Shown: piece by piece, positions 43,593 through 57,456 of the stretch
Numbering within the stretch: the first letter of the stretch is position 1
Layout: each line of letters starts with the position of its first letter
Source of the DNA: Candidatus Levybacteria bacterium RIFCSPHIGHO2_01_FULL_37_17
GTDB taxonomy: Bacteria; Patescibacteriota; Microgenomatia; Levybacterales; UBA12049
Reading direction: 5' to 3'
Length of the DNA: 64,000 nucleotides
NCBI GenBank assembly: GCA_001782035.1
Contig: MFNL01000002.1
Coordinates: forward strand, 60,865 to 124,864
Translations under genes and position numbers: made by a program
The notes under the pieces: generated by a model
The model's database searches: none
Seen by the model: the letters and a program-made list of their open reading frames with translations, nothing else
Told to the model about the DNA's origin: nothing

Positions 43593-43665
43593 GCGCCTGT
43601 AGCTCAATGGATAGAGCACTTCGCTTCGGACGAAGGGGTTGGGGGTTCGACTCCCTTCAGGCGCG
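43593..43665 (+). tRNA. tRNA-Arg (TCG)
   Basis: GCGCCTGTAGCTCAATGGATAGAGCACTTCGCTTCGGACGAAGGGGTTGGGGGTTCGACTCCCTTCAGGCGCG. Confidence 0.8.
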
Positions 43666-43689
43666 CTTCGCTTCGCTCAGCGTAAACGC

Positions 43690-43968
43690 ATGAAATGGTA
43701 TGTTTATATTCTCAAATGTAAAGATAGTAGTTTATATACCGGTATAACTACCAATGTAAATAGAAGAATAAATGAGCACAACTCAAAAAAGGGAGCGAAG
43801 TCTTTATTGGGAAAATTACCGGTAAAATTATTGTATAATGAGGTGTTCGACAATCAAATTAAAGCAGCTAAACGTGAAAGAGAAATCAAAGGATGGCGAA
43901 GGGAAAGAAAATTGGAATTAGTTAAACGGGTTTACCCTGAAAAGGTAAAACCTTTGAAGGGCCGCTAG
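43690..43968 (+). CDS. GIY-YIG nuclease superfamily protein (UPF0213/YhbQ-like)
   Basis: MKWYVYILKCKDSSLYTGITTNVNRRINEHNS..GAK...REREIKGW. Its stop TAG lies inside the 5' end of the downstream tRNA-Lys. Confidence 0.7.
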   Translation: MKWYVYILKCKDSSLYTGITTNVNRRINEHNSKKGAKSLLGKLPVKLLYNEVFDNQIKAAKREREIKGWRRERKLELVKRVYPEKVKPLKGR

Positions 43969-44031
43969 CTCAACTGGCAGAGCATCTCCCTCTTAAGGAG
44001 ACGGTTCGGCGTTCGACTCGCCGGCGGCTCA
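43959..44031 (+). tRNA. tRNA-Lys (CTT)
   Basis: GGGCCGCTAGCTCAACTGGCAGAGCATCTCCCTCTTAAGGAGACGGTTCGGCGTTCGACTCGCCGGCGGCTCA. Confidence 0.85.
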
Positions 44032-44051
44032 CAATTTCGCTTTGTAGAAAT

Positions 44052-45089
44052 ATGTTTAAAAAAATTCGTAAATTTGCACTTGCCCACAAGAGATTACTGG
44101 TGCCAGTAATAATTGTAATACTTGTTACAACCTTTCTACTTTTACCTAAAAACGGACAAGAAATTTTAACCGAACAGGTTTCAAAAAAAGATATTGCTAA
44201 AACAGTGTCTGTGACAGGCGATGTTGATGCTGATACAAGTGTAAACCTCACTTTTAAAACTGCCGGGAAATTAGTTTATTTGGGAGCCAAGGAAGGTGAT
44301 TTTATCGAGGCCTATCAAACAATTGCCACATTAGACCAACAAACTGCACTAAAAAGCTTAAAAGGATCACTGCTCGACTATTCAATTCAGAGAAATACAT
44401 TTGAATCGACACAAGATACATACCAAGACAGGAAGCCATATCAAGCTCTTAATGATGAGATGAAAAGAATTCTTGAAAATAATCAATACAATTTAGATAA
44501 AGCTATAAATTCCGTGGAATTACAAGAGCTCTCAAGAAGGGAGTCGATATTGACAACTCCTATTGCCGGAATCGTAACTAGAGCGGATGTAAAAGTTGCC
44601 GGAGTAAACATAACAACAGCCACCACTTATACTGTTACCGATCCATCTTCTCTTAATTTCAAAATGGAAGTTGACGAAGCAGATATTGGAAAAGTGGTAG
44701 ATGGACAAGAGGTTAAGATAACTTTTGACTCCTTTCCGGATTCTGAAATTAACTTAGCTATAGATAGCATTGATTTCGTAAGCCACAAGACCTTATCAGG
44801 TGGCAACGCATTTTACGTAAAAGCTCAAATCCAAGATCCATCTAAATATCGAGTCGGAATGAGCGGAAATGCCGACATTATCATAGATAAAAGAAGTAGC
44901 GTCTTAACGGTTAATATTTCAAGTATATTCGATGATAACTTTGTGTATGTAGAAAAAAATGGAAAATTTGAAAAAAGAAAAATAAAACTAGGACTGGAAA
45001 GCGACATAGACGCAGAAGTTTTATCTGGGCTGAGCTTAGGTGAGAAAGTAGCGCTTGATCCAAATACTGTTCCTCAAAATGCCAAATAA
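44052..45089 (+). CDS. efflux transporter periplasmic adaptor subunit (HlyD/MacA-like)
   Basis: N-terminal TM, coiled coil, and a beta-barrel region (TPIAGIVTRADVKVAGVNI). Confidence 0.7.
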   Translation: MFKKIRKFALAHKRLLVPVIIVILVTTFLLLPKNGQEILTEQVSKKDIAKTVSVTGDVDADTSVNLTFKTAGKLVYLGAKEGDFIEAYQTIATLDQQTALKSLKGSLLDYSIQRNTFESTQDTYQDRKPYQALNDEMKRILENNQYNLDKAINSVELQELSRRESILTTPIAGIVTRADVKVAGVNITTATTYTVTDPSSLNFKMEVDEADIGKVVDGQEVKITFDSFPDSEINLAIDSIDFVSHKTLSGGNAFYVKAQIQDPSKYRVGMSGNADIIIDKRSSVLTVNISSIFDDNFVYVEKNGKFEKRKIKLGLESDIDAEVLSGLSLGEKVALDPNTVPQNAK

Positions 45090-45756
45090 CGACTACATTA
45101 TAGAAATTAAAGACGTTACTAAGATATATAAAGCCGATGGGGTAGAAACAATTGCTTTAAATGGTATAAATCTTAAATTAAAAAGGGGTGATTTTTTGGC
45201 TATAACCGGAAGATCGGGTAGTGGAAAATCAACTCTAATGCATATTATTGGACTCCTAGATAAACCGACTTCAGGCGTATATTTTTTAAATGGAACAGAC
45301 GTTTCTAAATTTGATGAAGATAAGCTGGCTCTTTTAAGAAACAAATCATTAGGCTTTGTATTTCAATCTTTTAATTTACTCCAAAGAACAACTGCTGTTG
45401 AAAACGTTTGTCTTCCGGCGGTATATGCTGGAATACCCGAAAATGAAAGAATGCAAAAGGCAAGAGTACTTTTAGACGAATTAGGGCTTTTGGAACAATC
45501 AAACAAAAAGCCAAATCAAATGTCTGGAGGGCAGCAACAAAGAGTTGCCATTGCAAGAGCTTTAATAAATGATCCATCAATAATTCTTGCAGATGAGCCT
45601 ACTGGAAATTTGGACACAAAATCAGGTAAAGATGTAATGAAGATTTTAAAAAGTTTGAATAAAAACGGAAAGACAATAATTCTTATAACTCACGAACAAG
45701 ATATAGCTATGCAAGCAAAAAAAATCCTCCATCTTGAGGATGGAAAAATAAACTAA
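45055..45756 (+). CDS. ABC transporter ATP-binding protein (MacB/LolD type)
   Basis: Walker [11 protein letters not shown], signature [15 protein letters not shown], Walker [12 protein letters not shown]. Confidence 0.85.
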
Positions 45757-46946
45757 TGGATATAAAAGAACTATTAAAACTTTCACTTCGAGCTATAACG
45801 GCGAATAAGCTAAGAAGTTTTTTAACTACTCTTGGAATTGTTATTGGAGTTTTCTCCATAATTGTTTTGGTCTCAATAGGCTCGGGAATTAACAGCTATG
45901 TTACAACTCAAATATCATCACTTGGTTCAAATATATTTGAAGTTCTACCAGGTGGTGAGGGAAACGTATTTGGTGGTATTCTTTCTGCTAATTTAAAACT
46001 CCAGGACTCCGAGAATGTGCAAAGGAACTTAACTGGAATTGGAAAAGTAACGCCTCTTCTGCAACAAGCAGCAATTATTAAATATAAAAATATAAAAATA
46101 AAGGATGCTTTTGTTGGAGGAGTCAGTTATCAATACCCGGAGGTTGTGACCAGTTTAAAAATGAAATACGGAATTTTTTTTACAAAAAGCCAACAGCTTT
46201 CTGGAGCCCCAACTGTTGTGCTGGGATATAAAATTAATGAGAAATTTTTTAAAAATCAAAATTCGGTAGGTAATAAAATATATGTGGGAGAAAAACAGTA
46301 CAGAATTGTTGGCGTAGCAGATAAAACCGGTACTGCTTTAGGCACTTTTGATAGGGATAATATTGTTTATATACCTGTTGAACAAGCCCAATCCCAGTTT
46401 GGTACTTCATACATTAGACAAATAGTGGTGTCTGCAAACAGCAAGGAATTAATGCCACTTGCTATTAAAAGAGTGGAGGCTACTCTTTTAAAAAGACTTA
46501 CTAAAGACGATTTTTCTATAGAAACTGCAGAATCTATTTCGGAGACTATTACAAACGTTACAAATGTTTTATCTTTAGCTTTGGGCGGAATTGCTGCGAT
46601 ATCGCTTCTGGTCGGAGGAATAGGGGTTGCAAATATAATGCTCGTATCAGTAACCGAAAGAACTCGAGAAATTGGATTACGCAAAGCTTTGGGAGCAAAA
46701 AGGTCAGATATACTTAAACAATTTTTGTTGGAATCAGTACTAATATCTGTAACGGGTGGATTAATAGGTATAGCTTTAGGAATAGCTGCGTCGTTAATAA
46801 TTGCGCGCTTGCTGGTTTCAACCGTAACTCCATGGTCGGTATTTATCGCTTTTGGATTCTCTGTACTTGTTGGAGTAATTTTTGGAATGGCACCTGCAAT
46901 AAGAGCATCAAAGCTAAATCCAATAGAAGCTTTAAGATATGAATAA
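45756..46946 (+). CDS. ABC transporter permease, FtsX-like (MacB type)
   Basis: MacB periplasmic domain plus four-TM FtsX C-terminus (ERTREIGLRKALGA). Confidence 0.8.
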   Translation: MDIKELLKLSLRAITANKLRSFLTTLGIVIGVFSIIVLVSIGSGINSYVTTQISSLGSNIFEVLPGGEGNVFGGILSANLKLQDSENVQRNLTGIGKVTPLLQQAAIIKYKNIKIKDAFVGGVSYQYPEVVTSLKMKYGIFFTKSQQLSGAPTVVLGYKINEKFFKNQNSVGNKIYVGEKQYRIVGVADKTGTALGTFDRDNIVYIPVEQAQSQFGTSYIRQIVVSANSKELMPLAIKRVEATLLKRLTKDDFSIETAESISETITNVTNVLSLALGGIAAISLLVGGIGVANIMLVSVTERTREIGLRKALGAKRSDILKQFLLESVLISVTGGLIGIALGIAASLIIARLLVSTVTPWSVFIAFGFSVLVGVIFGMAPAIRASKLNPIEALRYE

Positions 46947-47853
46947 ATATTACTCTCTAGTTAAATATCTAATCGGCTGGCCGTTATCTCTGGTTGCCCT
47001 TGTTTTTGTCGCAAGAATTATTTATTCAAATTCAAGCGTAGCTTTTAAATCAATTGAACAAGTAAATTATTTTTTACTGGCAATAGGCATACTTTTATTC
47101 GTATTCTTTTTCTTTTTAAAAGCTTATACATGGAAGCTTTTACTTGGGGAGAAGGGGAAAACTTTGTCCTTTAGGAAAAATGCTTTTTACTTGGCTACCG
47201 CAGAGTTAAAAAGGTATATTCCCGGAAACATTTGGGGTTTTGCAGCAAGAGCTACAATTTTTGAAAATAATAATTTATCAAAAAGAGAAGTTTTCTCTTA
47301 TATTATTAAGGAATCTGTGCTTTTTTCTTTATCCTCTCTTATCATATCTTTAGTTTATATATTAAGCTCCGAGTCTACTCCGGGCATTAAGTTAACGGTT
47401 CTTTCCTTTACTACAATAGCTACTATTCTTTTTTTGTTAGGGAAGCATATTTACTATGCGCTGAACTTTAATTTACTCAAGAAAATAATTCATCTTCTGA
47501 TCCCTACTTATTCATTTTTAGAAAACTTTAAAATTCTATCTTGGAGTATTTTATCCTTCATTTTATTCGGAATTGGAACTTATTTTTCTATTATTTCTAT
47601 TTTCTCTCTAGATTTTAGTAAAATTTTAATCTTTGTTGGTATTTTTAACTTGTCTTTTTTTATCGGATATATTAGCTTAATCACCCCTATGGGTCTTGGG
47701 GTAAGAGAGGGAGCTATGACACTTTTACTTTCTTCTTTCTTAAGTGCTACTTCGGCTGCGGTGGCGTCTATTTTTTCAAGAGTTATTTTTATCGTTTCCG
47801 AATTATTAACTCTTTTTATTATTTATATTTGGAATAAAGTAAGTCCTAAATAA
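46939..47853 (+). CDS. flippase-like / LPG_synthase_TM (UPF0104) membrane protein
   Basis: Multi-TM protein with ITPMGLGVREGAMTLLL motif. Confidence 0.55.
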   Translation: MNKYYSLVKYLIGWPLSLVALVFVARIIYSNSSVAFKSIEQVNYFLLAIGILLFVFFFFLKAYTWKLLLGEKGKTLSFRKNAFYLATAELKRYIPGNIWGFAARATIFENNNLSKREVFSYIIKESVLFSLSSLIISLVYILSSESTPGIKLTVLSFTTIATILFLLGKHIYYALNFNLLKKIIHLLIPTYSFLENFKILSWSILSFILFGIGTYFSIISIFSLDFSKILIFVGIFNLSFFIGYISLITPMGLGVREGAMTLLLSSFLSATSAAVASIFSRVIFIVSELLTLFIIYIWNKVSPK

Positions 47854-49108
47854 AACTAGACCTCGTAGTATCGGCAAGTTTTGTGCGCTCGAACTTGTCA
47901 GCCATGTATCCATTGGGAACAGTTGTAAGCTTATCTGCATATAGAAGAAAACCATTTCTTATAGTATGATCTCCAAATTTATCATTAAGCCTATCAATTG
48001 CTTTTAATAGATTATGGGTTTTCTTTTCATTCTCAAAGAGAGTTAGAGTTGTATTTGAAGAATTTATTAAGCTTGACGCCCCTATGCTTATTCTTCTTAT
48101 ATAATCTTCTGAGTCTAAAATAAAATTGTGTTCGGAAAGAATAAGATTGCAGATATTAAATAAGTCTTTTCCGCTTTCAAAATACTCCGTAACTGTTTTG
48201 CGGGCGTGTACATTTTTTGTCCCTCCAAGATAAATAAATGCGGTTTTGGCTTGTTTGTTTAGCCTTCTGAGCTTTAGGGCTATTTCTTCACAAAGTTCAT
48301 AAACGTTTTGAAAAATAACTCGCTTGTCGTATTCGTTATGAGGCAGGCAATAATTCCTTCCAATAGATTTAACTTCTTCCTCAAGAAAGTATGGAATAAC
48401 GCTTCTTTCATCAATTCCAAAAGCTAACATTTGCAAAAAGTCTGCTTCAACATTTCCAAACTCCTTTTTAAGTGTGTTCGTTGGCATGTCTCGAAGCTGT
48501 AGAAAATTATATATACCTAATTTATTAAGCCTTATTGCTATTCGATCTCCTATCCCACAAACATCTGTGAGTTTTATTTTACTGTAAACCTCATCTAGGT
48601 TTTCTTTTTCAATTTCAAAAACTCCATTTGGCTTATTTATTCCAGATCCAAGTTTTGCCAAAAGTTTATTGTAAGAAATTCCAATAGAAACGGTTATATA
48701 TTCTCCGATTTCATTTTTTATTCTTTCTTTAATTGCTTTAACAATTCCTTCTTTTCCTCCAAATAAATGCTCTGAATTGGTAATGTCGATAAAAACCTCA
48801 TCCAGTGAAAAAAGCTCAACATATGGGGAATAATCTTTGCATATATTTAAAAATTTTTGGGTTATTTCCCAGTATTTTGTAAAATGGGCTGGGACGAAAG
48901 TCATATTGGGAACAATTTGCAATGCTTCCCATGTAACGCTAGGGGATTTGATGCCTAGTTTTTTAGCCTCTTTTGAAGCTGCAATTATGCAGGTACGACC
49001 ATTTGTTGCAGTAACGCCAATAGGAATTCCACGCAAATTTGGATTAAATTGCTGTTCGCAGGATGCAAAGTATGAATCAAAATCGATATGAAGGATTAAA
49101 CGGTTCAT
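47846..49108 (-). CDS. dinB: DNA polymerase IV (Y-family); the start is probably the Met of MNRLILHIDFDSYFASCEQ
   Basis: Y-family N-terminus (ILHIDFDSYFASCE) and palm/fingers conservation (SIGISYNKLLAKL). Confidence 0.8.
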   Translation of the reverse strand: MNRLILHIDFDSYFASCEQQFNPNLRGIPIGVTATNGRTCIIAASKEAKKLGIKSPSVTWEALQIVPNMTFVPAHFTKYWEITQKFLNICKDYSPYVELFSLDEVFIDITNSEHLFGGKEGIVKAIKERIKNEIGEYITVSIGISYNKLLAKLGSGINKPNGVFEIEKENLDEVYSKIKLTDVCGIGDRIAIRLNKLGIYNFLQLRDMPTNTLKKEFGNVEADFLQMLAFGIDERSVIPYFLEEEVKSIGRNYCLPHNEYDKRVIFQNVYELCEEIALKLRRLNKQAKTAFIYLGGTKNVHARKTVTEYFESGKDLFNICNLILSEHNFILDSEDYIRRISIGASSLINSSNTTLTLFENEKKTHNLLKAIDRLNDKFGDHTIRNGFLLYADKLTTVPNGYMADKFERTKLADTTRSSFI

Positions 49109-49246
49109 AATTATAAAAGTAACCAATAAATATAAGTTCTGAGGATCTTTCTTAGAATTCTAACGGGCAGCATAAGTTAAGAATAGTAGAACTTTATACG
49201 AAAATCAATAGAATTAAATACAACAATCTAGGTCAATATTTAAATC

Positions 49247-51223
49247 GTGTATAATGGTGACATGGAAAGTGCGGAAAGACAAAAAATTAATCAACAAGCG
49301 GAATTTGTAACAGATACTTTTGAAATTAAATTTCTTTCCCGGAGCGCAGATGGGCTAGAGATAGTAACGGACCAAAAACTTTTAAGACACGCACCAAATA
49401 CTCCTTTGCCTTTTGCCGAAAGGATTGCAAAAGAAAGAGCTAGGGAGAAAAAACAATTCAGAACAGGTACTGATTTTGCTCCAAAAGTGGGAATAAGAAA
49501 CCCAAGATTAGAAGGAAACCAACTTATTGTTGATGTAATGCCTGTAACCTTCCCTACTTTTAAGGCGATAAGTGAGGCAGATATATCAACAAACGAAAGA
49601 GAAATTGCTAATCCATCAGCCACTTCATTAATTTTAGTTACTACAGAACCAGACGGATCGCATAAATTTATACTTCAACACAGGAGCCCTAAAAACTTCT
49701 TCTACGGAGACATTCCAGGGGCAAGTGCTGCAGGATACCTTGATGCAAAATTACATACTACCGGAAATGATAAGGGGAAAATAGACGCTGTTACAACAGA
49801 TTCCATCAAAGCAAATGGGGCAAAAGAAATGAGAGAAGAAATTGGACTTTACCCAAGAGATATAGAAGATCTAAAAATTACGGGGCTTGCATCAGATAAG
49901 GTTAGGGTCCACGATGAATTCCTACTTTCTGCCAAAACTAAACTCAGTGCACGGGAGATTTTATTTAGATCAGGGTTAGGCGACACACATAGATTTGTCG
50001 AACAAGCACTTATAATTGATGCTGATAAGGAAACAGTAAATAAATTGTTGACCGAAGTTAAATGTCCATTGCCTCCTACGCATTTAGCTGCTTTTATTGC
50101 TGCCGAATACGCAATTATTCTCGAGGAAGAAGGGTTAGAAGTTGCTGAAGAATGGAAAAGGGAAATACAAGGAGGCGTAAAAAGAAATTATAGAGAAATA
50201 GATGAAATGGTCCAAAGATTCTACTTATATAATTTCCAGGTGGTAGATGATGTTCCAGAAGGGAAACCAGCTAGGAATACTCGTGGTTATGATCCGGCTT
50301 ATTTACCATCGCAACAAGGTCTTCCAGATATTGATTCAGAATTAGAGCGAGTGGGAATAAAAACAAAAGAGTTACAGAGAACAGTTGATGAAGTTATGGT
50401 TTTTGATGTCGATGGAGTCTTAACCATACCGGATGAAAGATTGTTCGATAGAGAAGTAATGGAGCACATTGCCCAAGTTTTAAAAAGAGGCGAGCCTGTA
50501 ATCCTTAATACGGGCAGGTCAATTTCCTGGCTCCAAGAAAAGATAGTAGCAAGGCTATACCACGCGCACAACCTTACAGATGTCACAGCCTTGCAAAACC
50601 TGTTTATGATTGCAGAAAAAGGTGGAGCTTGGATGGGTTTTAACGAACGGGGGCTTATGGATCCAGTACCGCATAGAGATGCAAGCGTATCGGTTCCCGA
50701 AAGTTTACAAAAAAAAGTAAGAGAAATTGTATCTGATGAATTTGCAAATACTATGTTTTTTGATGAAACCAAAGTATCGATGATTTCTGTTGAAATGAAC
50801 GAGGGAATTGATCTGAAAAATCCAGAACAAGAAGAAATGTTTAGAGAAGGTCAAAAAAGATTGGTGGAAAGATTAAAGCAGCTCTTAAAAAGTGAAGGGT
50901 TGGATACAGATTTAAAAATTGATCCAACAACAATCGCAACCGATATACAAAACAAGCATGTGGGCAAAGACTTTGCTATGCAAAGAGCTGTCGCTTGGTT
51001 AAAACAAAGACATATTTTTCCAAAAAAATATATTACGTTCGGCGATAGCGAGTCGGATTTTGCTATGGCCCAGCACTTGCATCAAGCAGGCTCAGATGTT
51101 GAGCATGTTCATGTAGGAAAATCTGCCATTCCAGAAGGAGTTTCTTTTCCTGTGGTTATAACAGAAGGAAAGTATAACAAGGGCACGAACGAGTACTTGA
51201 AAAGTAAGGAACCAATCAGTTAA
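49247..51223 (+). CDS. fusion protein: N-terminal NUDIX-like domain plus C-terminal HAD-IIB phosphatase-like domain
   Basis: Nudix-box-like GAKEMREEIGLYP preceded by ILVTTEPDGSHKFILQHR...YGDIPGASAAGYLD. HAD motif I MVFDVDGVLT and motif IV FGDSESD in the C-terminal half. Confidence 0.5.
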   Translation: MYNGDMESAERQKINQQAEFVTDTFEIKFLSRSADGLEIVTDQKLLRHAPNTPLPFAERIAKERAREKKQFRTGTDFAPKVGIRNPRLEGNQLIVDVMPVTFPTFKAISEADISTNEREIANPSATSLILVTTEPDGSHKFILQHRSPKNFFYGDIPGASAAGYLDAKLHTTGNDKGKIDAVTTDSIKANGAKEMREEIGLYPRDIEDLKITGLASDKVRVHDEFLLSAKTKLSAREILFRSGLGDTHRFVEQALIIDADKETVNKLLTEVKCPLPPTHLAAFIAAEYAIILEEEGLEVAEEWKREIQGGVKRNYREIDEMVQRFYLYNFQVVDDVPEGKPARNTRGYDPAYLPSQQGLPDIDSELERVGIKTKELQRTVDEVMVFDVDGVLTIPDERLFDREVMEHIAQVLKRGEPVILNTGRSISWLQEKIVARLYHAHNLTDVTALQNLFMIAEKGGAWMGFNERGLMDPVPHRDASVSVPESLQKKVREIVSDEFANTMFFDETKVSMISVEMNEGIDLKNPEQEEMFREGQKRLVERLKQLLKSEGLDTDLKIDPTTIATDIQNKHVGKDFAMQRAVAWLKQRHIFPKKYITFGDSESDFAMAQHLHQAGSDVEHVHVGKSAIPEGVSFPVVITEGKYNKGTNEYLKSKEPIS

Positions 51224-51770
51224 TTTGGGGCTCAAGCAGTGTCCAATTATGAGATACATAAGGCTCACTGCATAGGTTACGATTAAAACAGCATGGCCTT
51301 CTCTCTCCAGAATTGAGCTTAGAAAGGGCAACTTCTATATGTTTTTGGCGAGTTTCAGATGTTTTGACAGCTCGTATCCAACGAACCCAATCCCAACGTG
51401 CATTTGGAGTAATATCTTTCCATAAAGCCTCGGCTTTGGGTGAAGACAACAACGCTTTCTTTAAATCGTCTGGGACTTCCGGCTCAATCCATTCTTTAGT
51501 CGGTTCAAGCGTAACCTGTACTGTATCGCCAGCAGCTGCACTAGCATCATCAAGCAACTTTTTGTCAAGCCTAAACCAGTGGCTTGGTTGTTTTCCTACT
51601 CCATACTTTCCATCCGGCTCAAGCAAGGTTTTAAAAAGAACCCCGTTGATAGTTCCCGAAACCATGGTCATACCTCTTGAGGGAAGTTTCGCGCTTGCAT
51701 CCTCAGGAAGTCTTAAAATGGTCCATGTGTTGATCTTAAACAACTTAGCTTCAAAACTTATTGCGGACAT
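51216..51770 (-). CDS. DUF1905 plus YdeI/OmdA (bacteriocin-protection-like) two-domain protein
   Basis: N-terminus LPEDASAKLPSRGMTMVSGTINGVLFKTLLEPDG (DUF1905-like). C-terminus ARWDWVRWIRAVKTSETRQKHIEV (OmdA-like). The ATG lies 2 nt downstream of the tRNA-His CCA on the same strand. Confidence 0.55.
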   Translation of the reverse strand: MSAISFEAKLFKINTWTILRLPEDASAKLPSRGMTMVSGTINGVLFKTLLEPDGKYGVGKQPSHWFRLDKKLLDDASAAAGDTVQVTLEPTKEWIEPEVPDDLKKALLSSPKAEALWKDITPNARWDWVRWIRAVKTSETRQKHIEVALSKLNSGERRPCCFNRNLCSEPYVSHNWTLLEPQIN

Positions 51771-51772
51771 CG

Positions 51773-51847
51773 TGGGTGGATGACGGGTAACGCTCCCGCT
51801 GCCTCCTGGACCACAACCAGGCGTTCTGCTTTTGAACTACATCCACC
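51773..51847 (-). tRNA. tRNA-His (GTG) with encoded G-1 and CCA; non-canonical D- and T-loops
   Basis: rc reads G-GTGGATG TA GTTC AAAAGCA GAAC G CCTGG TTGTGGT CCAGG AGGCA GCGGG AGCGTTA CCCGT CATCCAC C CCA. The D-loop lacks GG and the T-loop lacks the TTC. Confidence 0.6.
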
Positions 51848-51873
51848 ATGCTTACACTGAGTAAATCGAAGTG

Positions 51874-51946
51874 CGACCCTGGAGGGAATCGAACCCCCAA
51901 CCTGGTGCTTAGAACGCACTCGCTCTATCCGTTGAGCTACAGGGCC
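51874..51946 (-). tRNA. tRNA-Arg (TCT)
   Basis: rc reads GGCCCTGTAGCTCAACGGATAGAGCGAGTGCGTTCTAAGCACCAGGTTGGGGGTTCGATTCCCTCCAGGGTCG. Confidence 0.8.
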
Positions 51947-52005
51947 ATGCTCATATTTTATCAAAAATACCCTCGAAACAAAAGACTCGCTAGTGTATAA
52001 TCGAG

Positions 52006-52860
52006 TTGAATTTATTGATGAAAAAAATATTTATTCAACAAATCGTTCCCGTTGCTCTCACAATTTTAACTTTCCTCGTACTTTCTACATGTCTTTATGG
52101 TTTGCTTCTTTTATTAAATTTATTGCCATTATCTGAAAAAATTCTACTAGATTTTAATAAACGGGACGTATTAATCGGAATAGCTATTTATTTAAAAACA
52201 GCGATTGACTTCGCAATATTTATAGGTAACTTAATGCACACAAACCCCGGATGGAAGAAGCGTATTGCAATAGAGCTGGGAACGGCTGTGGGTAATGCAT
52301 TTGGTACATTTGCAGTCCTTATTGTGTGGGTTTTATTTAAGGAAGTGCCAATCTTAATGATGCTTATGATATTTGTAGCATCGATTGTGTTATTAAGAAT
52401 GGCTCAAGAAAGTCTTGAGGAATTTCTAAAACAGAAAAAAAGTTTTATCGATATAAAAATGCCCGTTTATCTTCTTCAGTCTCAACTGAATTTCGTAAAT
52501 AAATTATTTCGTCCAATTCTTAAATTTGTAGTGCCGCATTTGAACTTAACGAGGGTTAAAAAACTGTCATTTGTTAATTTAGCAGTTTTTTCATTTACGA
52601 TACCTTTTATTTTGGGTTTGGACGATTTTGCTGGTTATGTTCCGTTATTCAATGTGATTAATCTATTTGGATTTGCCCTTGGAGTAATGCTTGGGCACAT
52701 GATTTTAAATATAGGATTATTTATCTGGCCAACTAAAACTGTACAAATAGTAAGGCACCCATTTGTACTAATAATAGGTGGATTGGCTTTTGTCGGTCTT
52801 GCTTTGTGGGGTTTTTACGAAGTCTTCAAGCTATTTACATTTAATATAATGAGCGGGTGA
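52006..52860 (+). CDS. hypothetical multi-pass membrane protein
   Basis: 284 aa with about 7 hydrophobic helices. Its 3' end overlaps the convergent tRNA-Gly(TCC) by about 8 nt. Confidence 0.4.
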   Translation: MNLLMKKIFIQQIVPVALTILTFLVLSTCLYGLLLLLNLLPLSEKILLDFNKRDVLIGIAIYLKTAIDFAIFIGNLMHTNPGWKKRIAIELGTAVGNAFGTFAVLIVWVLFKEVPILMMLMIFVASIVLLRMAQESLEEFLKQKKSFIDIKMPVYLLQSQLNFVNKLFRPILKFVVPHLNLTRVKKLSFVNLAVFSFTIPFILGLDDFAGYVPLFNVINLFGFALGVMLGHMILNIGLFIWPTKTVQIVRHPFVLIIGGLAFVGLALWGFYEVFKLFTFNIMSG

Positions 52861-52922
52861 AGGGAATCGAACCCTCGTATCAACTTTGGAAAAGTTGTGT
52901 TCTGCCATTGAACTACACCCGC
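52852..52922 (-). tRNA. tRNA-Gly (TCC)
   Basis: rc reads GCGGGTGTAGTTCAATGGCAGAACACAACTTTTCCAAAGTTGATACGAGGGTTCGATTCCCTTCACCCGCT. Confidence 0.85.
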
Positions 52923-53071
52923 CAAATGGGACAAACCTCGCGGTTTTCCCCAACGATTTCCATTTAAGGATAGCAAAATCGGAACTCTTAATCCAGCGAT
53001 TTTGCTTAATCGTAGATAAATTATTATACAAAACATTTGAAGTTTGCTCAAGAATTCGCTACGATATTTTT

Positions 53072-53377
53072 ATGTCACAAGGGATTAATCATTTTCACGG
53101 ACATAAAAAACCAGTTACTCCTTTTGATCATTTAATGTATGCTGTAGCTTTAATAGCACCACTTCTTACTGTTCCTCAATTCCTAGATGTGTGGATAAGA
53201 AAGGATGCATCGGGCCTTTCACTTTTTACATGGAGCGCCTATACAGTTATGTCTTTTCTTTGGCTCTTATATTGGAAAGAGCACCATAAAACGTGGATCC
53301 TTCTTGGGCATATTATTATTCTTTTACTTAATGCTGGGATTGTACTTGGAATCTTGATTTACGGTAAGTCGGGGTGA
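53072..53377 (+). CDS. SemiSWEET/PQ-loop-like small 3-TM membrane protein
   Basis: About 100 aa with three TM helices and a PQ motif in TM1 (TVPQFLDVW). The start is placed at the Met downstream of the overlapping tRNA. Confidence 0.4.
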   Translation: MSQGINHFHGHKKPVTPFDHLMYAVALIAPLLTVPQFLDVWIRKDASGLSLFTWSAYTVMSFLWLLYWKEHHKTWILLGHIIILLLNAGIVLGILIYGKSG

Positions 53378-53440
53378 GAGGAATTGGACCTCTTACTTCT
53401 CGGTCCCAAACCGAGCGTTCTACCGATGAACTACACCCCG
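53369..53440 (-). tRNA. tRNA-Pro (TGG)
   Basis: rc reads CGGGGTGTAGTTCATCGGTAGAACGCTCGGTTTGGGACCGAGAAGTAAGAGGTCCAATTCCTCTCACCCCGA. C1-G72 is typical of bacterial tRNA-Pro. The T-loop reads TCCAATT. Confidence 0.8.
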
Positions 53441-53442
53441 TG

Positions 53443-53513
53443 CTGCCGAGCTTGGATTCGAACCAAAATAAACGGATCCAAAGTCCGTTGTCCTACCATT
53501 AGACGACTCGGCA
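53443..53513 (-). tRNA. tRNA-Gln (TTG)
   Basis: rc reads TGCCGAGTCGTCTAATGGTAGGACAACGGACTTTGGATCCGTTTATTTTGGTTCGAATCCAAGCTCGGCAG. U1-A72 is typical of bacterial tRNA-Gln. Confidence 0.8.
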
Positions 53514-53627
53514 ATGCTTCAATTCTATCAATTTTTTGCTCAGTTGAAAAGCGAAGCACATTGCCGTAAAATTGTTTTACGTCATATTTTGTCCGCTTGC
53601 CTCGCTTTGCGGGACAAGAACTGACGA

Positions 53628-53712
53628 GCCGTGGTGGTGGAATGGCAGACACGAGGGCCTTAAGAGCCTTTGTCCCTAAACGGACGTGAGAGTTCGACTC
53701 TCTCCCGCGGCA
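53628..53712 (+). tRNA. tRNA-Leu (TAA), class II with a long variable arm
   Basis: GCCGTGGTGGTGGAATGGCAGACACGAGGGCCTTAAGAGCCTTTGTCCCTAAACGGACGTGAGAGTTCGACTCTCTCCCGCGGCA. Confidence 0.85.
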
Positions 53713-53715
53713 CAA

Positions 53716-54822
53716 TTAAAGCATGTCGGGATTAATTTTAATGATTTTATCATCTCCTGATTTCGAAACCCCTCTTCCATCCAAATTACTTGTAGTTATA
53801 TATAGAAAATTATCCGGCCCCAAAACTACATCTCTTAATCTTCCATATTCATTCTTAAAATACTCCGTTAATTGTTGCGTTGAAATATTATACTTGTAGA
53901 AAGCCTCTCCTTTTAGACCGCCAAAATATAATGAGCCATTGTGATATGCAAGACCGGCAGGTGCCCAAACATTTCTATCTGATTGCAATACGGGCCCCAC
54001 AGTTCCTGATCTAACGCTCTGGCCGACGCTTTCCGGCCAGCCGTAGTTTTTGCCTTCTTCTATTTTATTTATTTCGTCTTGGCAACAATTAGGCCAAATT
54101 CCAGAAGGACCATGCTCTGTTTCCCAAAGTTGTCCTGACTCATCCCAAGCAATTCCTTGTGGATTCCTGTGTCCGTATGAATAAATCGCAACTTTTCCAT
54201 CTCTTTCAACCCGCAATATTTTTCCAGCAAATGAATCCCTATCTTGTGCCAAAGAGGACTGCGTCGCATCACCGGTTGTAATATAAAGCAGGCCATCTGG
54301 CCCAAACTTAATTCTGCCTCCGTTGTGATAAATTCCGCCAGGAATTTCGTCAACTATGATTTTTTCTTCAGATAAAGAGCCATTCTTATAAGTTAATCTA
54401 ACCACTCGATTAAGAGTATTATTTCCGTTTCCGCTATATGTGTAGTAAAAATAAATAAAATTGTTTGAAGAAAAATTTGGGTCCAAGGCCATTCCCATAA
54501 GACCGCCTTCTCCGTATTCTTTTACATTTCCAAGCTTCGTAATCTCACTTTTTTCTTTTTTTCTTATCAGAGCAACTGTTCCATTTCTCTCGGTAATAAG
54601 CATTGAGTTATCAGGAAGAAAAGCAATTGACCAAGGAGTGTCTAATTGTTCCGCGATTACCGTTATATTCTTAGAAGGAGTTTCACTTTTAGGTTTTAAC
54701 GTGTTAAGACTTGGGAATACGGAGTCTTTATTAATAAATATGACAAAGAATGCTAATCCGACCAAAATCAAGATTATTAATAAAACTATTCTCATAACAA
54801 TAATATAACGTATTTTAAACAA
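53716..54822 (-). CDS. PQQ-dependent soluble sugar (glucose/sorbosone) dehydrogenase-like beta-propeller, membrane-anchored
   Basis: GSDH-family motifs (HNGGRIKFGPDGLLYITTGDATQSSLAQD...GKILRV, YSYGHRNPQGIAWD). Confidence 0.7.
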   Translation of the reverse strand: MFKIRYIIVMRIVLLIILILVGLAFFVIFINKDSVFPSLNTLKPKSETPSKNITVIAEQLDTPWSIAFLPDNSMLITERNGTVALIRKKEKSEITKLGNVKEYGEGGLMGMALDPNFSSNNFIYFYYTYSGNGNNTLNRVVRLTYKNGSLSEEKIIVDEIPGGIYHNGGRIKFGPDGLLYITTGDATQSSLAQDRDSFAGKILRVERDGKVAIYSYGHRNPQGIAWDESGQLWETEHGPSGIWPNCCQDEINKIEEGKNYGWPESVGQSVRSGTVGPVLQSDRNVWAPAGLAYHNGSLYFGGLKGEAFYKYNISTQQLTEYFKNEYGRLRDVVLGPDNFLYITTSNLDGRGVSKSGDDKIIKINPDML

Positions 54823-54847
54823 AATATCTTACAGAGCTATAAATTTT

Positions 54848-55816
54848 TTGTATAATATTCGAATTATGCGTGAAACTGTCCTAAAGTTTTTTAGCCTTCT
54901 TATTAGCAAATTTGCTTTCGCTTTTATAATCACCACTCTACTTACAGGAATAATTTTAATACCATTTGTTATTAAAAACACTTATAAAATAAACCAAGCA
55001 CCTAAGCCTCTGCTCGATATAGTCCCCACTAAAATTATTACCAAAACGCCTACCGCAACACCTAGCCCTACATTAAAACCTATTCCGTCCAATATCATTG
55101 CGCCAACGAGTCCTCCTGTTGTAATAAATAATGTAGCTCCAGGATCTGGCTACAACAGGCAAACTGTTGCAATATCAGAAGGAAATTTTATCGTGGATAT
55201 TATAGCTGCGGATTTAAATACAACCAGAGTAATCGTTGACACTGCATCTGATTCTGATTGCTTCGATAATTGCCCAGTACTTCCGCTTTCAGATTATGTA
55301 TCAAGGAGTGGAGGATTTGCGGGTATCAATGGTACGTATTTCTGTCCGGCTTCATATCCATCATGTGCCGGCAAAGTTAATTCGTTCGATTTATTGGTTA
55401 TGAATAAAAACAAATATTATTTTAATTCCTCCAATAATGTTTACAGCACAAACCCTGCAGTAATCTTTTATGGCAACTCTGTAAGGTTTGTCGGGCAAGC
55501 GCTTGAATGGGGAAGGGACACTGGTGTAGATGCTGTAATCTCAAACTTTCCATTATACGTAAGCGGCGGAAATGCTGTAGCACAAGGGGGAGTGAGGGGA
55601 TTTAAATCATTTATCGGAAATAAAGGGAGCACGGTTTATATTGGATTCGTACGAAATGCAACCGCAGGAGAAACTGCAAAGGTTTTGCAAGCCTTAGGTT
55701 TGGAAAATGCGATGGGCTTGGACCAAGGAGGTTCCACTGCTTTAATGTATAACAGCTCCTATATTCTTGGCCCTGGTCGCGGGATACCAAATGCTGTCCT
55801 ATTTGTGCGTAAATAG
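54848..55816 (+). CDS. phosphodiester glycosidase (NAGPA/DUF2233) family protein, N-terminal TM
   Basis: GGFAGINGTYF... and LDQGGSTALMYN motifs typical of DUF2233. Confidence 0.6.
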   Translation: MYNIRIMRETVLKFFSLLISKFAFAFIITTLLTGIILIPFVIKNTYKINQAPKPLLDIVPTKIITKTPTATPSPTLKPIPSNIIAPTSPPVVINNVAPGSGYNRQTVAISEGNFIVDIIAADLNTTRVIVDTASDSDCFDNCPVLPLSDYVSRSGGFAGINGTYFCPASYPSCAGKVNSFDLLVMNKNKYYFNSSNNVYSTNPAVIFYGNSVRFVGQALEWGRDTGVDAVISNFPLYVSGGNAVAQGGVRGFKSFIGNKGSTVYIGFVRNATAGETAKVLQALGLENAMGLDQGGSTALMYNSSYILGPGRGIPNAVLFVRK

Positions 55817-55900
55817 TGCCCAAGGGGAGATTCGAACTCCCAAGTCCTTGCGGACACAGCGTTCTGAACGCTGCGCGTCTGCCAGTTTCGCCACCTGGGC
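55817..55900 (-). tRNA. tRNA-Leu (CAG), class II
   Basis: rc reads GCCCAGGTGGCGAAACTGGCAGACGCGCAGCGTTCAGAACGCTGTGTCCGCAAGGACTTGGGAGTTCGAATCTCCCCTTGGGCA. Confidence 0.85.
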
Positions 55901-55905
55901 ATTTG

Positions 55906-55977
55906 TGGGCCCTGAGGGACTTGAACCCCCGACACCTGCGATGTAAACGCAGTGCTCTACCACTGAGCTAAGAGCCC
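55906..55977 (-). tRNA. tRNA-Val (TAC)
   Basis: rc reads GGGCTCTTAGCTCAGTGGTAGAGCACTGCGTTTACATCGCAGGTGTCGGGGGTTCAAGTCCCTCAGGGCCCA. Confidence 0.85.
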
Positions 55978-55980
55978 TGG

Positions 55981-56064
55981 TGCGGATGAGAGGACTCGAA
56001 CCTCCACGCTTTTTACGGCACAGCCACCTCAAGGCTGCGTGTATACCAGTTTCACCACATCCGC
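55981..56064 (-). tRNA. tRNA-Leu (GAG), class II
   Basis: rc reads GCGGATGTGGTGAAACTGGTATACACGCAGCCTTGAGGTGGCTGTGCCGTAAAAAGCGTGGAGGTTCGAGTCCTCTCATCCGCA. Confidence 0.8.
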
Positions 56065-56067
56065 GTG

Positions 56068-56140
56068 TGCTGAGGGCGTGAGTCGAACACGCATAGCCTG
56101 TTCTTCAGACAGGTGCCTTGACCACCTTGGCTACCTCAGC
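56068..56140 (-). tRNA. tRNA-Phe (GAA)
   Basis: rc reads GCTGAGGTAGCCAAGGTGGTCAAGGCACCTGTCTGAAGAACAGGCTATGCGTGTTCGACTCACGCCCTCAGCA. The D-stem is 3 bp with a long D-loop. Confidence 0.7.
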
Positions 56141-56165
56141 TTGGATTAATATTATACAAGAGCTC

Positions 56166-56193
56166 TTGACTCTTGACAAATTTAGTGTAGAAT
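56166..56193 (+). promoter_or_regulatory. promoter TTGACT-N16-TAGAAT driving a near-leaderless ORF at 56208
   Basis: Consensus hexamers; the ATG lies about 8 nt after the predicted TSS. Confidence 0.45.
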
Positions 56194-56207
56194 ATCATCC
56201 TTATATT

Positions 56208-56495
56208 ATGCCAGTATCGCAATTCGAGAGAGAAAGAACAACTAGAGTAAACTTTGATGAGCTTGCCGGCAAAGTCGGAGGGGAAGTTGTTAGAACAAAG
56301 AGCGGGGAGAAAACAAGCGAGAAATTACTCGTAGGTGATAAAAGAGGAGTCTTTAACTGGAGCTTAATAAGAGAGATTATCCCGCAAAGACTTTCTCGAG
56401 TGTTTTTTCAAGATGAATTCGGCAGAGCAGATGTTACCGACTTAAGTATTTCAGTTAATGGAAGTAGAATAGTATTCGAAGTTTCTGAAGCCTAA
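56208..56495 (+). CDS. hypothetical protein
   Basis: ORF trimmed to the first Met downstream of tRNA-Phe and the promoter. No family recognised. Confidence 0.4.
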   Translation: MPVSQFERERTTRVNFDELAGKVGGEVVRTKSGEKTSEKLLVGDKRGVFNWSLIREIIPQRLSRVFFQDEFGRADVTDLSISVNGSRIVFEVSEA

Positions 56496-56686
56496 CTTTT
56501 CTTCTTTGGTACTTTTGCCCCTGCTTTTCTAGCTTCAGATAGTCCAATTGCGATAGCCTGTTTTCTACTCTTAACCTTTCCACCCCTTCCACTCTTTAAC
56601 GCACCACGTTTATACTCGTGGATAGCTTTTTCAACTTTTTGCTGAGCTTTCTTACCATATCTAACCATATTTATACTCCTCACCAA
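56492..56686 (-). CDS. small basic hypothetical protein
   Basis: 64 aa, Lys/Arg-rich with the segment SRKQAIAIGLSEARKAG. Convergent with the 56208 gene. Confidence 0.4.
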   Translation of the reverse strand: MVRSINMVRYGKKAQQKVEKAIHEYKRGALKSGRGGKVKSRKQAIAIGLSEARKAGAKVPKKKS

Positions 56687-56714
56687 TAAAACGCGTAAAT
56701 GCCCTTGTTGTTAT

Positions 56715-56743
56715 CTTGAGCCTGGGGTACATTTTTGCTATAC
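56715..56743 (+). promoter_or_regulatory. promoter for tRNA-Gly(GCC): TTGAGC-N17-TATACT
   Basis: Hexamers at 56715-56720 and 56738-56743; the tRNA starts at 56755. Confidence 0.5.
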
Positions 56744-56754
56744 TCCAATAGTTC

Positions 56755-56826
56755 GCGGGAGTAGTTCATCGGTAGAATGTTTCCTTGCCAAGGAAAAGGC
56801 AGCGGGTTCGATTCCCGTCTCCCGCT
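56755..56826 (+). tRNA. tRNA-Gly (GCC)
   Basis: GCGGGAGTAGTTCATCGGTAGAATGTTTCCTTGCCAAGGAAAAGGCAGCGGGTTCGATTCCCGTCTCCCGCT. Confidence 0.85.
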
Positions 56827-56880
56827 CATAGCCCCAAATTTCTTGACAAAAACATCTGAATTTGTCATTCTAAGGGATAC

Positions 56881-57456
56881 ATGAGAAAGATACTTATTTC
56901 TGCCTGCTTCTTCTTTCTTACTCCGGCACTTTTAATAGTTTCCATTCTATTTTTCGGCTATCTCAGCTCATATTCAGAACGCTCTTTTCTATCATTCCAA
57001 AAATCGCCCAAAGTAGCATACGCTGCTGTTCCAAATTCAAATCAAGCCTACTTATTAGATAATGCAGAAAAAGATGCCCGGGTAGAAAGAATAAGAGATT
57101 TTCTGACAAAATACGACTCTGACCTTGCTCCATATGCAGAATTTATTGTTGAAACAGCAGATAAATATAGCCTGGACTGGAGACTGGTCCCTGTAATTGC
57201 GATGCAGGAATCAACTCTTTGTAAAAAGGCGCCCAAAGATTCTTTTAACTGCTGGGGATTTGGGATTTACGGCAAGAAAGTTACAAAATTCTCAAACTAT
57301 AAAGAAGCAATTGAAACTGTTACAAAGACCCTTGCCAAGAATTACATAGACCAAGGACTAGTTGAGCCTGACGAAATAATGAGTAAGTATACGCCTTCAA
57401 ACGACGGAACTTGGGCCAAAAACGTAGCAAGTCTTATGAATGGTCTACAAATCTAG
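56881..57456 (+). CDS. secreted glucosaminidase-like (GH73/FlgJ-like) peptidoglycan hydrolase, paralogue 1
   Basis: Signal peptide; LDWRLVPVIAMQEST...NCWGFGIYG resembles the GH73 catalytic region. Confidence 0.45.
   Translation: MRKILISACFFFLTPALLIVSILFFGYLSSYSERSFLSFQKSPKVAYAAVPNSNQAYLLDNAEKDARVERIRDFLTKYDSDLAPYAEFIVETADKYSLDWRLVPVIAMQESTLCKKAPKDSFNCWGFGIYGKKVTKFSNYKEAIETVTKTLAKNYIDQGLVEPDEIMSKYTPSNDGTWAKNVASLMNGLQI

Follow-up and report, generated by a model that had tools for sequence, protein, structure and literature searches.

A predicted fusion of a NUDT22-like Nudix domain to a HAD-IIB phosphatase domain in a Levybacteria genome

The locus and its gene model

The 64,000-nucleotide stretch of DNA analyzed here (hereafter the window) is part of contig MFNL01000002.1 from Candidatus Levybacteria bacterium RIFCSPHIGHO2_01_FULL_37_17. 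Between dinB and a tRNA-His gene, the window carries a segment of about 2.5 kb that is occupied by two convergent genes overlapping by 8 bp. One of these, hereafter called the fusion gene, codes for a protein that appears to join a Nudix pyrophosphatase to a phosphatase of the haloacid dehalogenase (HAD) superfamily. The other codes for a protein with DUF1905 and OmdA/YdeI-like domains. We predict that the fusion protein is a cytoplasmic bifunctional hydrolase and that it represents a rare family found mainly in Patescibacteria. A preliminary description of this segment had reported both genes and the flanking dinB and tRNA-His genes, all of which lie where it placed them. It had also proposed that the segment is an acquired module, a view that is weighed below together with the neighboring features.

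A mechanical open reading frame (ORF) at 49247..51223 on the plus strand begins with GTG and encodes 658 amino acids, including the Nudix-box-like segment GAKEMREEIGLYP and the HAD-like sequences DVDGVLT and GDSESD that were originally noted. However, the true start is probably the ATG at 49262, giving 653 amino acids, and the GTG at 49247 was therefore dropped. The GenBank protein from Candidatus Levybacteria RIFCSPHIGHO2_01_FULL (locus tag A2798_02590; 100% identical, 99% query coverage) has 653 residues, the homolog alignment begins at this position, and a conserved sequence, TGTATAAT, is located just upstream. Residue numbers given below count from this Met. The fusion gene can be divided as follows.

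49262..51223, plus strand: fusion gene, 653 amino acids plus stop codon (GenBank protein; full-length AlphaFold2 model with a predicted local distance difference test score, pLDDT, of 92.5 and a predicted template modeling score, pTM, of 0.81)
49262..49606, plus strand: N-terminal beta-rich subdomain, residues 1-115, the apparent counterpart of the NUDT22 N-terminal domain (Foldseek; hhalign query residues 19-95)
49607..50056, plus strand: predicted Nudix-fold subdomain, residues 116-265 (Foldseek; invariant residues)
49718..49849, plus strand: extended Nudix box, G153 to L196 (PGASAAG, about 30 residues, then K-E-M-R-E-E-I-G-L)
50057..50377, plus strand: helical extension and linker, residues 266-372 (VKCPLPPTHxAAF, a long helical hairpin, GYDPAYxPxxQGLP)
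50378..51220, plus strand: predicted HAD-IIB phosphatase domain, residues 373-653 (PF08282, TIGR01484, conserved motifs, structural matches)
50405..50419, plus strand: HAD motif I, DVDGV
51041..51058, plus strand: HAD motif IV, GDSESD

A predicted NUDT22-like fold in the N-terminal half

The N-terminal half belongs to no Pfam or NCBIfam family. The Pfam NUDIX model matches four of 19 homologs, weakly (best E 0.035), and the window protein itself has no PF00293 match. When the PDB was searched by sequence and by profile, the full protein and the N-terminal half gave a marginal match to YidA for the HAD part and otherwise nothing. The relationship with human NUDT22 came to light only through structure prediction.

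Both the full-length model and a separate AlphaFold2 model of the N-terminal half (pLDDT 88.7, pTM 0.90) were compared with PDB structures by using Foldseek, and human NUDT22 ranked first in each search. For the N-terminal half, the top six matches are all human NUDT22 chains (E 2.3e-12 to 2.5e-10; target template modeling (TM) scores of 0.63-0.69), with alignments of 299-318 columns that span essentially the whole of these 282-301-residue chains. The first match to any other protein has an E value of 1e-5 and a TM score of 0.45. Every remaining listed match is a Nudix-fold protein or domain, and the next-best structures include NudC, NUDT12 and NUDT5. The Nudix-like character originally proposed for this half is thereby upheld and refined to a NUDT22-like type.

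A marginal similarity is also seen in profile alignments. With the family profile as query, hhalign aligned the single NUDT22 sequence (verified against 5lf9_A) at an E value of 0.005. When 15 vertebrate NUDT22 orthologs were used instead, the E value was 1.4e-4 with a probability of 53%, and the 203 aligned columns cover both subdomains. Pairs of matched segments (family/NUDT22) are QHRS/LRRS, DIPGASAAG/DVPGGHPEP, KEMREEIGL/QEICDEVNL, GLASD/GIARN and DEFLL/AEFYV, such that the RS, PG, G-[IL]-A and EF positions line up.

The two proteins also share a non-canonical Nudix box. The canonical 23-residue box, GX5EX7REUXEEXGU, is not matched by the fusion protein, whose box halves are separated by about 30 residues instead of 7. 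The box carries an insertion of approximately 20 residues, as it does in human NUDT22, and the insertions between the PG(G/A) turn and the xExxEExGU helix are nearly equal in length. From the PG turn to the EE pair there are 40 residues in the fusion protein and 39 in NUDT22, compared with about 19 in a canonical box. The second half of the box is present as K-E-M-R-E-E-I-G-L, with E189, E192, E193 and G195 conserved. The putative metal-binding glutamates E189, E192 and E193 are conserved at 97%, 92% and 100%, respectively, and align with E189, D192 and E193 of NUDT22, the roles of the NUDT22 residues being presumed from the alignment. In a set of 65 homologs, Q139, R141, N145, G153, S155, G158 and E193 are invariant.

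Beyond the Nudix fold, the model includes helices at residues 272-290 and 292-323. Within residues 266-372, P269 and Q352 are invariant, and C268 and H274 are at least 90% conserved. Judging from the models, most of this region is a family-specific addition that lacks a NUDT22 counterpart, because NUDT22 chains comprise only 282-301 residues and the hhalign alignment stops at query residue 240. Thus, although the fusion protein resembles NUDT22 (PDB 5lf9, 5lor, 5lou, 5r50) in having an N-terminal beta domain followed by a Nudix fold, it differs by an extra helical segment of about 100 residues with a CPLPPTH signature and by a C-terminal HAD-IIB domain.

Human NUDT22 has no Pfam match either, and so the absence of a Pfam Nudix match in the fusion protein is uninformative. 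The preliminary description had named profile searches as the means by which its Nudix proposal could fail, but a negative outcome of this kind would mislead here, since both proteins are missed by the Pfam NUDIX model. Among human Nudix enzymes, NUDT22 has been singled out as the outlier, a protein that 'lacks a conventional NUDIX box' (PMC5688067). The enzyme hydrolyzes UDP-glucose to UMP and glucose-1-phosphate, and UDP-glucose/UDP-galactose hydrolysis of this type is known for the human enzyme only (PMC10101856). We predict that residues 1-370 form a NUDT22-type Nudix pyrophosphatase that consists of an N-terminal beta subdomain, a Nudix fold and the helical extension.

A HAD-IIB domain in the C-terminal half

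The assignment of the C-terminal half to the HAD superfamily, as originally noted, is upheld. In the window protein, PF08282 is matched with 28.2 bits (cut-off 20.9), and residues 384-613 align with positions 2-217 of the 221 in TIGR01484 (E 1.2e-9). Motifs I to IV (DxD, S/T, K and GDxxxD) are intact, and a C2B cap is located between motifs II and III. Among 50 full-length homologs, D382, D384, G385, G418, R419, K569, G594, D595 and D599 are 100% conserved, and T417 is conserved at 92%. The cap also carries residues that are specific to this family, including GEKGGxW, K504, T506, M507 and E511.

Foldseek neighbors of this half include PH1421, TA0175, trehalose-6-phosphate phosphatases (T6PPs), phosphomannomutases (PMMs) and an atypical alpha-phosphoglucomutase (alpha-PGM), with target TM scores of 0.58-0.72. 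Searching the PDB with a profile of 17 C-terminal domains retrieved PH1421, PfHAD1, PMM2, T6PP, YidA and BT4131 (E 3.6e-6 to 8e-3). The fusion protein shares a Rossmann-like core with the known HAD-IIB proteins, which include the PH1421/TA0175 'phosphoglycolate phosphatase' group, Cof/YidA, T6PP, PfHAD1, PMM and the lactococcal alpha-PGM. It also shares the motifs DxDG(V/T), (T/S)GR, K and GDxxxD and the insertion of the cap between motifs II and III. Unlike these proteins, its C-terminal half is very divergent, with 3.6e-6 as its best PDB profile E value, and has its own cap residues and a Nudix partner. Residues 373-653 are thus predicted to be a HAD-IIB phosphatase of the Cof/T6PP/PMM-like type with all catalytic motifs intact.

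Distribution of the family and linkage of the two domains

Members of this family are few. When 1.84 billion representative proteins were searched exhaustively with a profile, 246 representatives were retrieved at E <= 1e-3, and the named sources of the N-terminal domain are mostly Patescibacteria. A scan of 185,579 species genomes with a single pattern identified 11 loci, six of which are labeled Patescibacteria or Levybacteria. The other five are labeled Gammaproteobacteria (two), Verrucomicrobiia (one) or simply bacterium (two). Another 27 loci were identified by scanning metagenome contigs. Loci are designated below by L numbers.

The labels of some metagenome-assembled contigs that carry members of this family or the DUF1905/OmdA gene look doubtful, including Methylomirabilota for L025 and L026, Gammaproteobacteria for L013 and L018, and Verrucomicrobiia for L020. 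For example, a contig of 35.7% GC with genes resembling those of the candidate phyla radiation (CPR) is called Methylomirabilota. Part of the apparent spread across phyla may come from binning errors.

Three arrangements of the N-terminal half are observed. At most loci it is fused to the HAD domain. At others it is encoded by a separate gene that overlaps or abuts a separate HAD gene (L023 7935-10116, L051 12-1360, L056 76-1213), including one junction in which the stop and start codons share a base. It is also found alone (L013, L027, L031). The occurrence of the two halves both fused and as adjacent split genes argues that the two activities work together, whereas the solitary copies suggest that the Nudix half is an autonomous enzyme. 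Separately, the fusion gene is in pieces in L002 (8001-9933), L015 and L021, which may reflect frameshifts or assembly errors.

Homologs are named only as 'hypothetical', by a HAD label or by a generic 'MutT' label in their sources. The literature that we searched holds no description of a Nudix-HAD architecture of this type, nor of any prokaryotic NUDT22 relative or wider NUDT22 family. This outcome, along with the absence of a Pfam or NCBIfam family for the N-terminal half, agrees with the earlier remark that the architecture is not a described one.

Gene context in different clades

The genes that adjoin the fusion gene differ from clade to clade. In the clade of the window, the fusion gene is found amid dinB, BipA and tRNA genes, and in a second group (clade C) it is located between two-component genes and ComEC/ComEA. 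Clade B (36-38% identical; six of about 30 distinct loci) carries the gene inside a glycan cluster with a Wzm/Wzt exporter and family 4 glycosyltransferases (GT4s). This cluster (L005, L006, L007, L020, L039; the fusion gene lies at about position 8001 in L005-L007) is found near dnaA/rnpA/yidC/jag. Its other genes code for Gmd, a second short-chain dehydrogenase/reductase (SDR), a small canonical Nudix protein (NDPSase_N plus NUDIX), a cupin resembling phosphomannose isomerase (PMI), a family 2 glycosyltransferase with GtrA, and FkbM-type methyltransferases. No ManB- or ManC-type gene is visible in these 18-kb clusters.

In L005 and L007, a true GDP-mannose 4,6-dehydratase gene (TIGR01472 scores of 424 and 438 bits, cut-off 415) precedes the fusion gene by no more than about 600 bp. 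The dehydratase gene adjoins the fusion gene in L007, and one small Nudix gene is found between them in L005. A parallel exists in the gmd-fcl-gmm colanic acid cluster, where Gmm/WcaH, a small canonical Nudix GDP-mannose hydrolase, cleaves at sugar C1 and trims the GDP-mannose pool. However, Gmm/WcaH is small and canonical, and the clade B clusters carry their own gene of this kind beside the fusion gene. This context supports nucleotide-sugar metabolism for part of the family, and it hints at GDP-hexose there rather than the UDP-hexose that the NUDT22 analogy would suggest.

Near one standalone copy of the N-terminal domain, at distances of about 2-5.5 kb, are genes that encode a UshA-type 5'-nucleotidase, an NTP_transferase-family nucleotidyltransferase and a PfkB-family kinase, and transposase fragments flank this copy. 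Gene context as a guide to the substrate of the whole family was considered and rejected, as it is specific to each clade.

Proposed function and alternatives

On balance, we lean toward a model in which the fusion protein is a two-step hydrolase of a nucleotide-sugar, with the Nudix step preceding the HAD step. The Nudix half would cleave the pyrophosphate bond of a nucleoside-diphosphate sugar to yield a nucleoside monophosphate (NMP) and a sugar-1-phosphate. The substrate might be a UDP-hexose, by analogy with NUDT22, or a GDP-hexose, by the gene context of clade B. The HAD half would then dephosphorylate one of the resulting phosphomonoesters (the sugar phosphate is the likelier of the two), and this would make disposal irreversible and release free sugar, phosphate and a salvageable nucleotide. 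The physiological role might therefore be control of a nucleotide-sugar pool or nucleotide salvage. A coupling of pyrophosphohydrolysis to dephosphorylation had been put forward in the preliminary description, and the idea gains strength from the closest structural match, which is a UDP-glucose hydrolase.

Some known proteins offer partial precedents. TPS-TPP, SPS-SPP and bifunctional MPGS-MPGP each combine a glycosyltransferase that uses a nucleoside-diphosphate sugar with a HAD-IIB phosphatase, and build a phosphorylated disaccharide or glycoside. The fusion protein likewise would carry a nucleotide-sugar-binding domain and a HAD-IIB sugar-phosphate phosphatase in one polypeptide. Its partner domain is predicted to be a Nudix pyrophosphatase rather than a glycosyltransferase, which suggests a pathway that is degradative or regulatory and not biosynthetic. 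In Escherichia coli, UshA (UDP-sugar hydrolase/5'-nucleotidase) is a periplasmic metallophosphoesterase that carries out a two-step breakdown of UDP-sugars. The fusion protein would also complete two steps in one protein, but UshA is periplasmic and has an unrelated fold.

Several observations weigh against the two-step hydrolase model. The sequence identity between the fusion protein, from a candidate-phylum bacterium, and vertebrate NUDT22 is marginal (14-17%), the hidden Markov model search of the PDB was empty, and the hhalign probability is 53%. The link to NUDT22 thus depends mainly on predicted structure, and the extended Nudix box might have arisen by convergence. In the C-terminal half, the TIGR01484 score of 38.5 bits falls under the cut-off of 41.8. 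The HAD-IIB fold does not separate phosphatases from phosphomutases or nucleotidases, and the structural matches extend to PMM, alpha-PGM and the IMP nucleotidase ISN1. Finally, because gene context is clade-specific, the nucleotide-sugar context of clade B does not apply directly to the gene in the window.

One alternative keeps the Nudix chemistry but casts the HAD-IIB half as a phosphohexomutase, of the eukaryotic PMM or lactococcal alpha-PGM type, that converts sugar-1-phosphate to sugar-6-phosphate. In this case, the nucleoside-diphosphate hexose would be channeled into glycolysis and the NMP salvaged, and the phosphate would not be discarded. PMM1, PMM2, Aspergillus PMM and the atypical alpha-PGM 4bnd score well in the structural comparison (target TM scores of 0.58-0.66), PMM2 was retrieved in the profile search (E 0.004), and the DxD motif retains its two catalytic Asp residues without exception. 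Moreover, the PMI-like cupin and Gmd genes of the clade B clusters point to mannose-phosphate metabolism. However, the PMM Pfam family is not matched, and the best relatives by sequence and structure are the phosphatases PH1421, PfHAD1, T6PP, YidA and BT4131. The family is too divergent for the distal-phosphate-binding residues typical of PMMs to be judged. We consider a mutase function unlikely, although it is the most plausible of the alternatives.

Slightly less plausible is that the Nudix half acts on a compound other than a sugar nucleotide, such as ADP-ribose, NAD(H), a dinucleotide cofactor or a nucleotide-metabolite RNA cap, and that the HAD half processes the product. The substrate range of Nudix enzymes cannot be predicted from the fold alone, and the next-best structures include NudC, NUDT12 and NUDT5, whose substrates are NAD(H), RNA caps or ADP-ribose. 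In addition, the window neighbors of the fusion gene are dinB and tRNA genes, with no sugar genes. On the other hand, NUDT22 matches both subdomains far better than any other Nudix structure does, a glycan and GDP-mannose context is present in one clade, and HAD-IIB enzymes mostly act on sugar phosphates.

A further alternative, which we regard as a little less probable again, is that the fusion protein is a cytoplasmic, non-orthologous analogue of UshA whose HAD half turns the NMP into a nucleoside. E. coli UshA is known to carry out this net reaction, the HAD-family nucleotidase ISN1 is among the top structural matches (E 4.6e-11), and the standalone N-terminal domain gene described above is about 5.5 kb from a UshA-type gene (Metallophos plus 5_nucleotid_C). 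However, the TM scores for ISN1 are low (0.35-0.44), with root-mean-square deviations mostly of 12-20 A, and the loss of cytoplasmic NMP looks wasteful in organisms believed to depend on nucleotide salvage.

Finally, because the clade B clusters hold the PMI-like cupin, Gmd and second SDR genes and no visible ManB or ManC, we considered that the fusion protein there supplies both missing steps of GDP-mannose synthesis. The HAD half would be a eukaryote-type phosphomannomutase and the NUDT22-like half a nucleotidyltransferase/pyrophosphorylase that makes nucleoside-diphosphate sugar and pyrophosphate from NTP and sugar-1-phosphate. Human NUDT5 has been reported to make ATP from ADP-ribose and pyrophosphate, a reverse-type reaction on a Nudix scaffold, but we give this combination almost no credence; if true, nucleotide-sugar synthesis by a protein with a Nudix fold would define a novel enzyme type.

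Flanking features and synteny

The fusion gene is flanked by the following features.

47846..49126, minus strand: dinB, Y-family DNA polymerase IV (Pfam IMS E 2e-41, IMS_C E 2e-8), the left syntenic neighbor, not part of the enzyme
49127..49261, no strand: intergenic region between dinB and the fusion gene, a conserved candidate divergent-promoter region (alignment with L001)
49248..49255: candidate extended -10 element (TGTATAAT), ending 7 nucleotides before the ATG at 49262
51216..51770, minus strand: DUF1905 plus OmdA/YdeI-family gene, 184 amino acids, 555 bp (Pfam; DUF1905 E 1.6e-13, OmdA E 6.6e-17)
51774..51846, minus strand: tRNA-His (GTG) (ARAGORN; Rfam 48.9 bits; sequence)
51873..51946, minus strand: tRNA-Arg (TCT), upstream of tRNA-His on the same strand (ARAGORN, Rfam)

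The same locus was compared in two relatives. L001 is a 29.5-kb metagenomic contig from a related Levybacteria that carries an ortholog of the fusion protein with 66% identity, and L002 is a second relative with an ortholog at 64%. L001 is collinear with the window from 41 to 53 kb. The shared order begins with DUF2130, RNase HII, tRNA-Arg/Lys, a membrane protein, dinB and the fusion gene. It continues with an OmdA-family gene abutting tRNA-His, tRNA-Arg(TCT), a 278-aa membrane protein and tRNA-Gly/Pro/Gln/Leu. Inside this segment, the two differ only by a BipA gene that L001 carries. Identity between proteins encoded at corresponding positions ranges from 54 to 76%, and the 66% of the fusion protein falls mid-range. 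In L002, dinB and the membrane protein are retained near the fusion ortholog. As an aside, dinB is present as two ORFs (IMS and IMS_C) at 6608-7847 of L001, which probably reflects a frameshifted pseudogene or a sequencing error.

Alignment of the dinB-fusion intergenic region with L001 (7848-8000) reveals a run of about 60 bases with one mismatch, in addition to the shared TGTATAAT. By eye, this DNA is better conserved than the adjoining coding DNA, where the flanking proteins are 66-76% identical. The region probably holds a shared operator or promoter of the divergent genes. Furthermore, the mRNA for the fusion protein is probably leaderless, because the extended -10 element ends only 7 nucleotides before the ATG in the window and 6 in L001. 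The region matches no Rfam family and has no stable predicted RNA fold (z = -0.01). A consensus scan for sigma-70 promoters and terminators gave results no better than those from shuffled sequences, and it missed the extended -10 element, which lacks a -35.

The DUF1905/OmdA gene

The adjacent gene codes for a protein that matches PF08922 with 51 bits (cut-off 24) and PF13376 with 61.7 bits (cut-off 25.6). It has 4146 homologs, and the best 120 are 79-85% identical except for one truncated copy with 100% identity. Named hosts among these 120 are Levybacteria, Roizmanbacteria, other Patescibacteria, 'Methylomirabilota' and Anaerolineaceae. In all four hosts compared, the GC content of the gene is 43-50% against backgrounds of 36-50%, and DNA identities are 73-82%. 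In other hosts (L011, L024, L025; about 5001-5640), the gene is found singly in variable regions, and two of these copies are beside toxin-antitoxin genes. At the same position in L001 there is a different, shorter OmdA paralog with 49% identity. The simplest reading of these comparisons is that the gene has spread horizontally and is under strong purifying selection. It appears to be functionally unrelated to the fusion gene. A PDB search with the protein gave chance matches only, and the literature searched contained nothing relevant on DUF1905/YdeI function.

We also note that this subfamily ends in a conserved RRPCCFNRNLCSEPYVSHNW motif, and that contigs carrying it are labeled CPR, Methylomirabilota or Chloroflexi (Anaerolineaceae). 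The Anaerolineaceae carrier is a 239-kb contig that looks sound, and a 10.6-kb stretch of it has a GC content of 50%.

The 3' end of tRNA-His is separated from the ATG of the DUF1905/OmdA gene by 3 nucleotides on the same strand in the window (51768-51946) and by 0 nucleotides in L001 (11830-12288), and tRNA-Arg lies just upstream of tRNA-His in both. This gap is too short to hold a promoter or ribosome-binding site, and the gene probably depends for its transcription on read-through from tRNA-Arg and tRNA-His. Processing of the tRNA 3' end would then free the mRNA as a leaderless or nearly leaderless message, comparable to the tRNA punctuation of mitochondria. Such processing would explain the exact abutment better than an attachment site does.

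An island at the tRNA-His gene?

In the preliminary description, the whole 2.5 kb was viewed as a module gained by horizontal transfer and inserted at the tRNA-His 3' end, an interpretation that now seems very improbable. It started from a GC content of 42-47% against a background of about 35%, which was overstated. The computed GC content of the segment is 39.9%, compared with 36.8% over the whole window (z = 1.5), a level reached by 8% of windows of the same size. Values as high as those first given are seen only for the DUF1905/OmdA gene (43.4%) and the tRNAs (56.6%). For the fusion gene, GC content is 38.8% and GC content at third codon positions (GC3) is 0.288, compared with a mean of 0.287 +/- 0.027 for the 43 window ORFs of at least 200 amino acids. 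Given this typical GC3, its slight GC excess sits in codon positions 1 and 2 and reflects amino-acid content. In contrast, the GC3 of the DUF1905/OmdA gene is 0.368, about 3 standard deviations above the mean. Thus, the suggested compositional analysis leaves one of the two genes atypical and the other ordinary.

It is true that the segment ends at a tRNA 3' end, with a gap of only 3 nucleotides. However, the window holds 19 tRNA genes, 14 of which lie between 43.5 and 60 kb (cluster 43593-59901), and their order is kept in L001. Several touch or overlap ORF ends, such as tRNA-Gly at 52851 with an ORF end at 52860 and tRNA-Leu at 55816 with an ORF end at 55816. With this density, adjacency is expected by chance and is weak evidence for an island. 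A search for direct repeats of the attachment-site (att) type near tRNA-His yielded short chance repeats only. None of the 20 largest direct-repeat families in 46500-52100, a region of 5.6 kb, involves the tRNA-His 3' end (51774-51800). From 45.7 to 55.8 kb, Pfam or syntenic L001 orthologs account for most ORFs, and no recombinase or integrase is found among those checked, although the scan did not take in every one.

The fusion gene has ordinary GC3, conserved synteny and an ortholog as diverged as those of its neighbors, with no att repeat and, among the ORFs checked, no integrase nearby, all of which argue that it is not island-borne. The comparison of this locus in relatives, which had been proposed earlier, places the fusion ortholog at the same dinB/tRNA-His locus in L001 and near dinB in L002. 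Taken together, these sequence comparisons indicate that the fusion gene is part of the vertically inherited chromosome of Levybacteria (Patescibacteria/CPR), and not of a tRNA-integrated island. What favors acquisition, beyond the slightly raised GC of the segment and its endpoint, concerns the DUF1905/OmdA gene: its GC3, the 79-85% identity of its product to proteins from other phyla, its GC content of 43-50% even in hosts with a low GC content of 36-38%, and the different paralog in L001, which is compatible with replacement of one gene. The foreign part would comprise at most this 555-bp gene, for which alone the label 'acquired' may be right.

Implications

The locus carries two cautions for automated scans. 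A modest rise in GC that is driven by amino-acid content, next to a tRNA gene, is no sign of an island in a compact, tRNA-dense genome, and a negative Pfam result does not exclude a Nudix fold.

The models and alignments support the view that the NUDT22-like-HAD-IIB fusion has an architecture new to the literature searched and is a bacterial match to an atypical human Nudix enzyme. NUDT22-type enzymes would gain an evolutionary context, and a tractable model protein, from a rare bacterial family in which this odd Nudix box recurs. The fused and split versions predict a specific two-step reaction, in which a nucleoside-diphosphate sugar would yield NMP, sugar and phosphate. Salvage is believed to supply Patescibacteria with nucleotides and sugars, and such an enzyme could bear on how these organisms control or recycle activated sugars.

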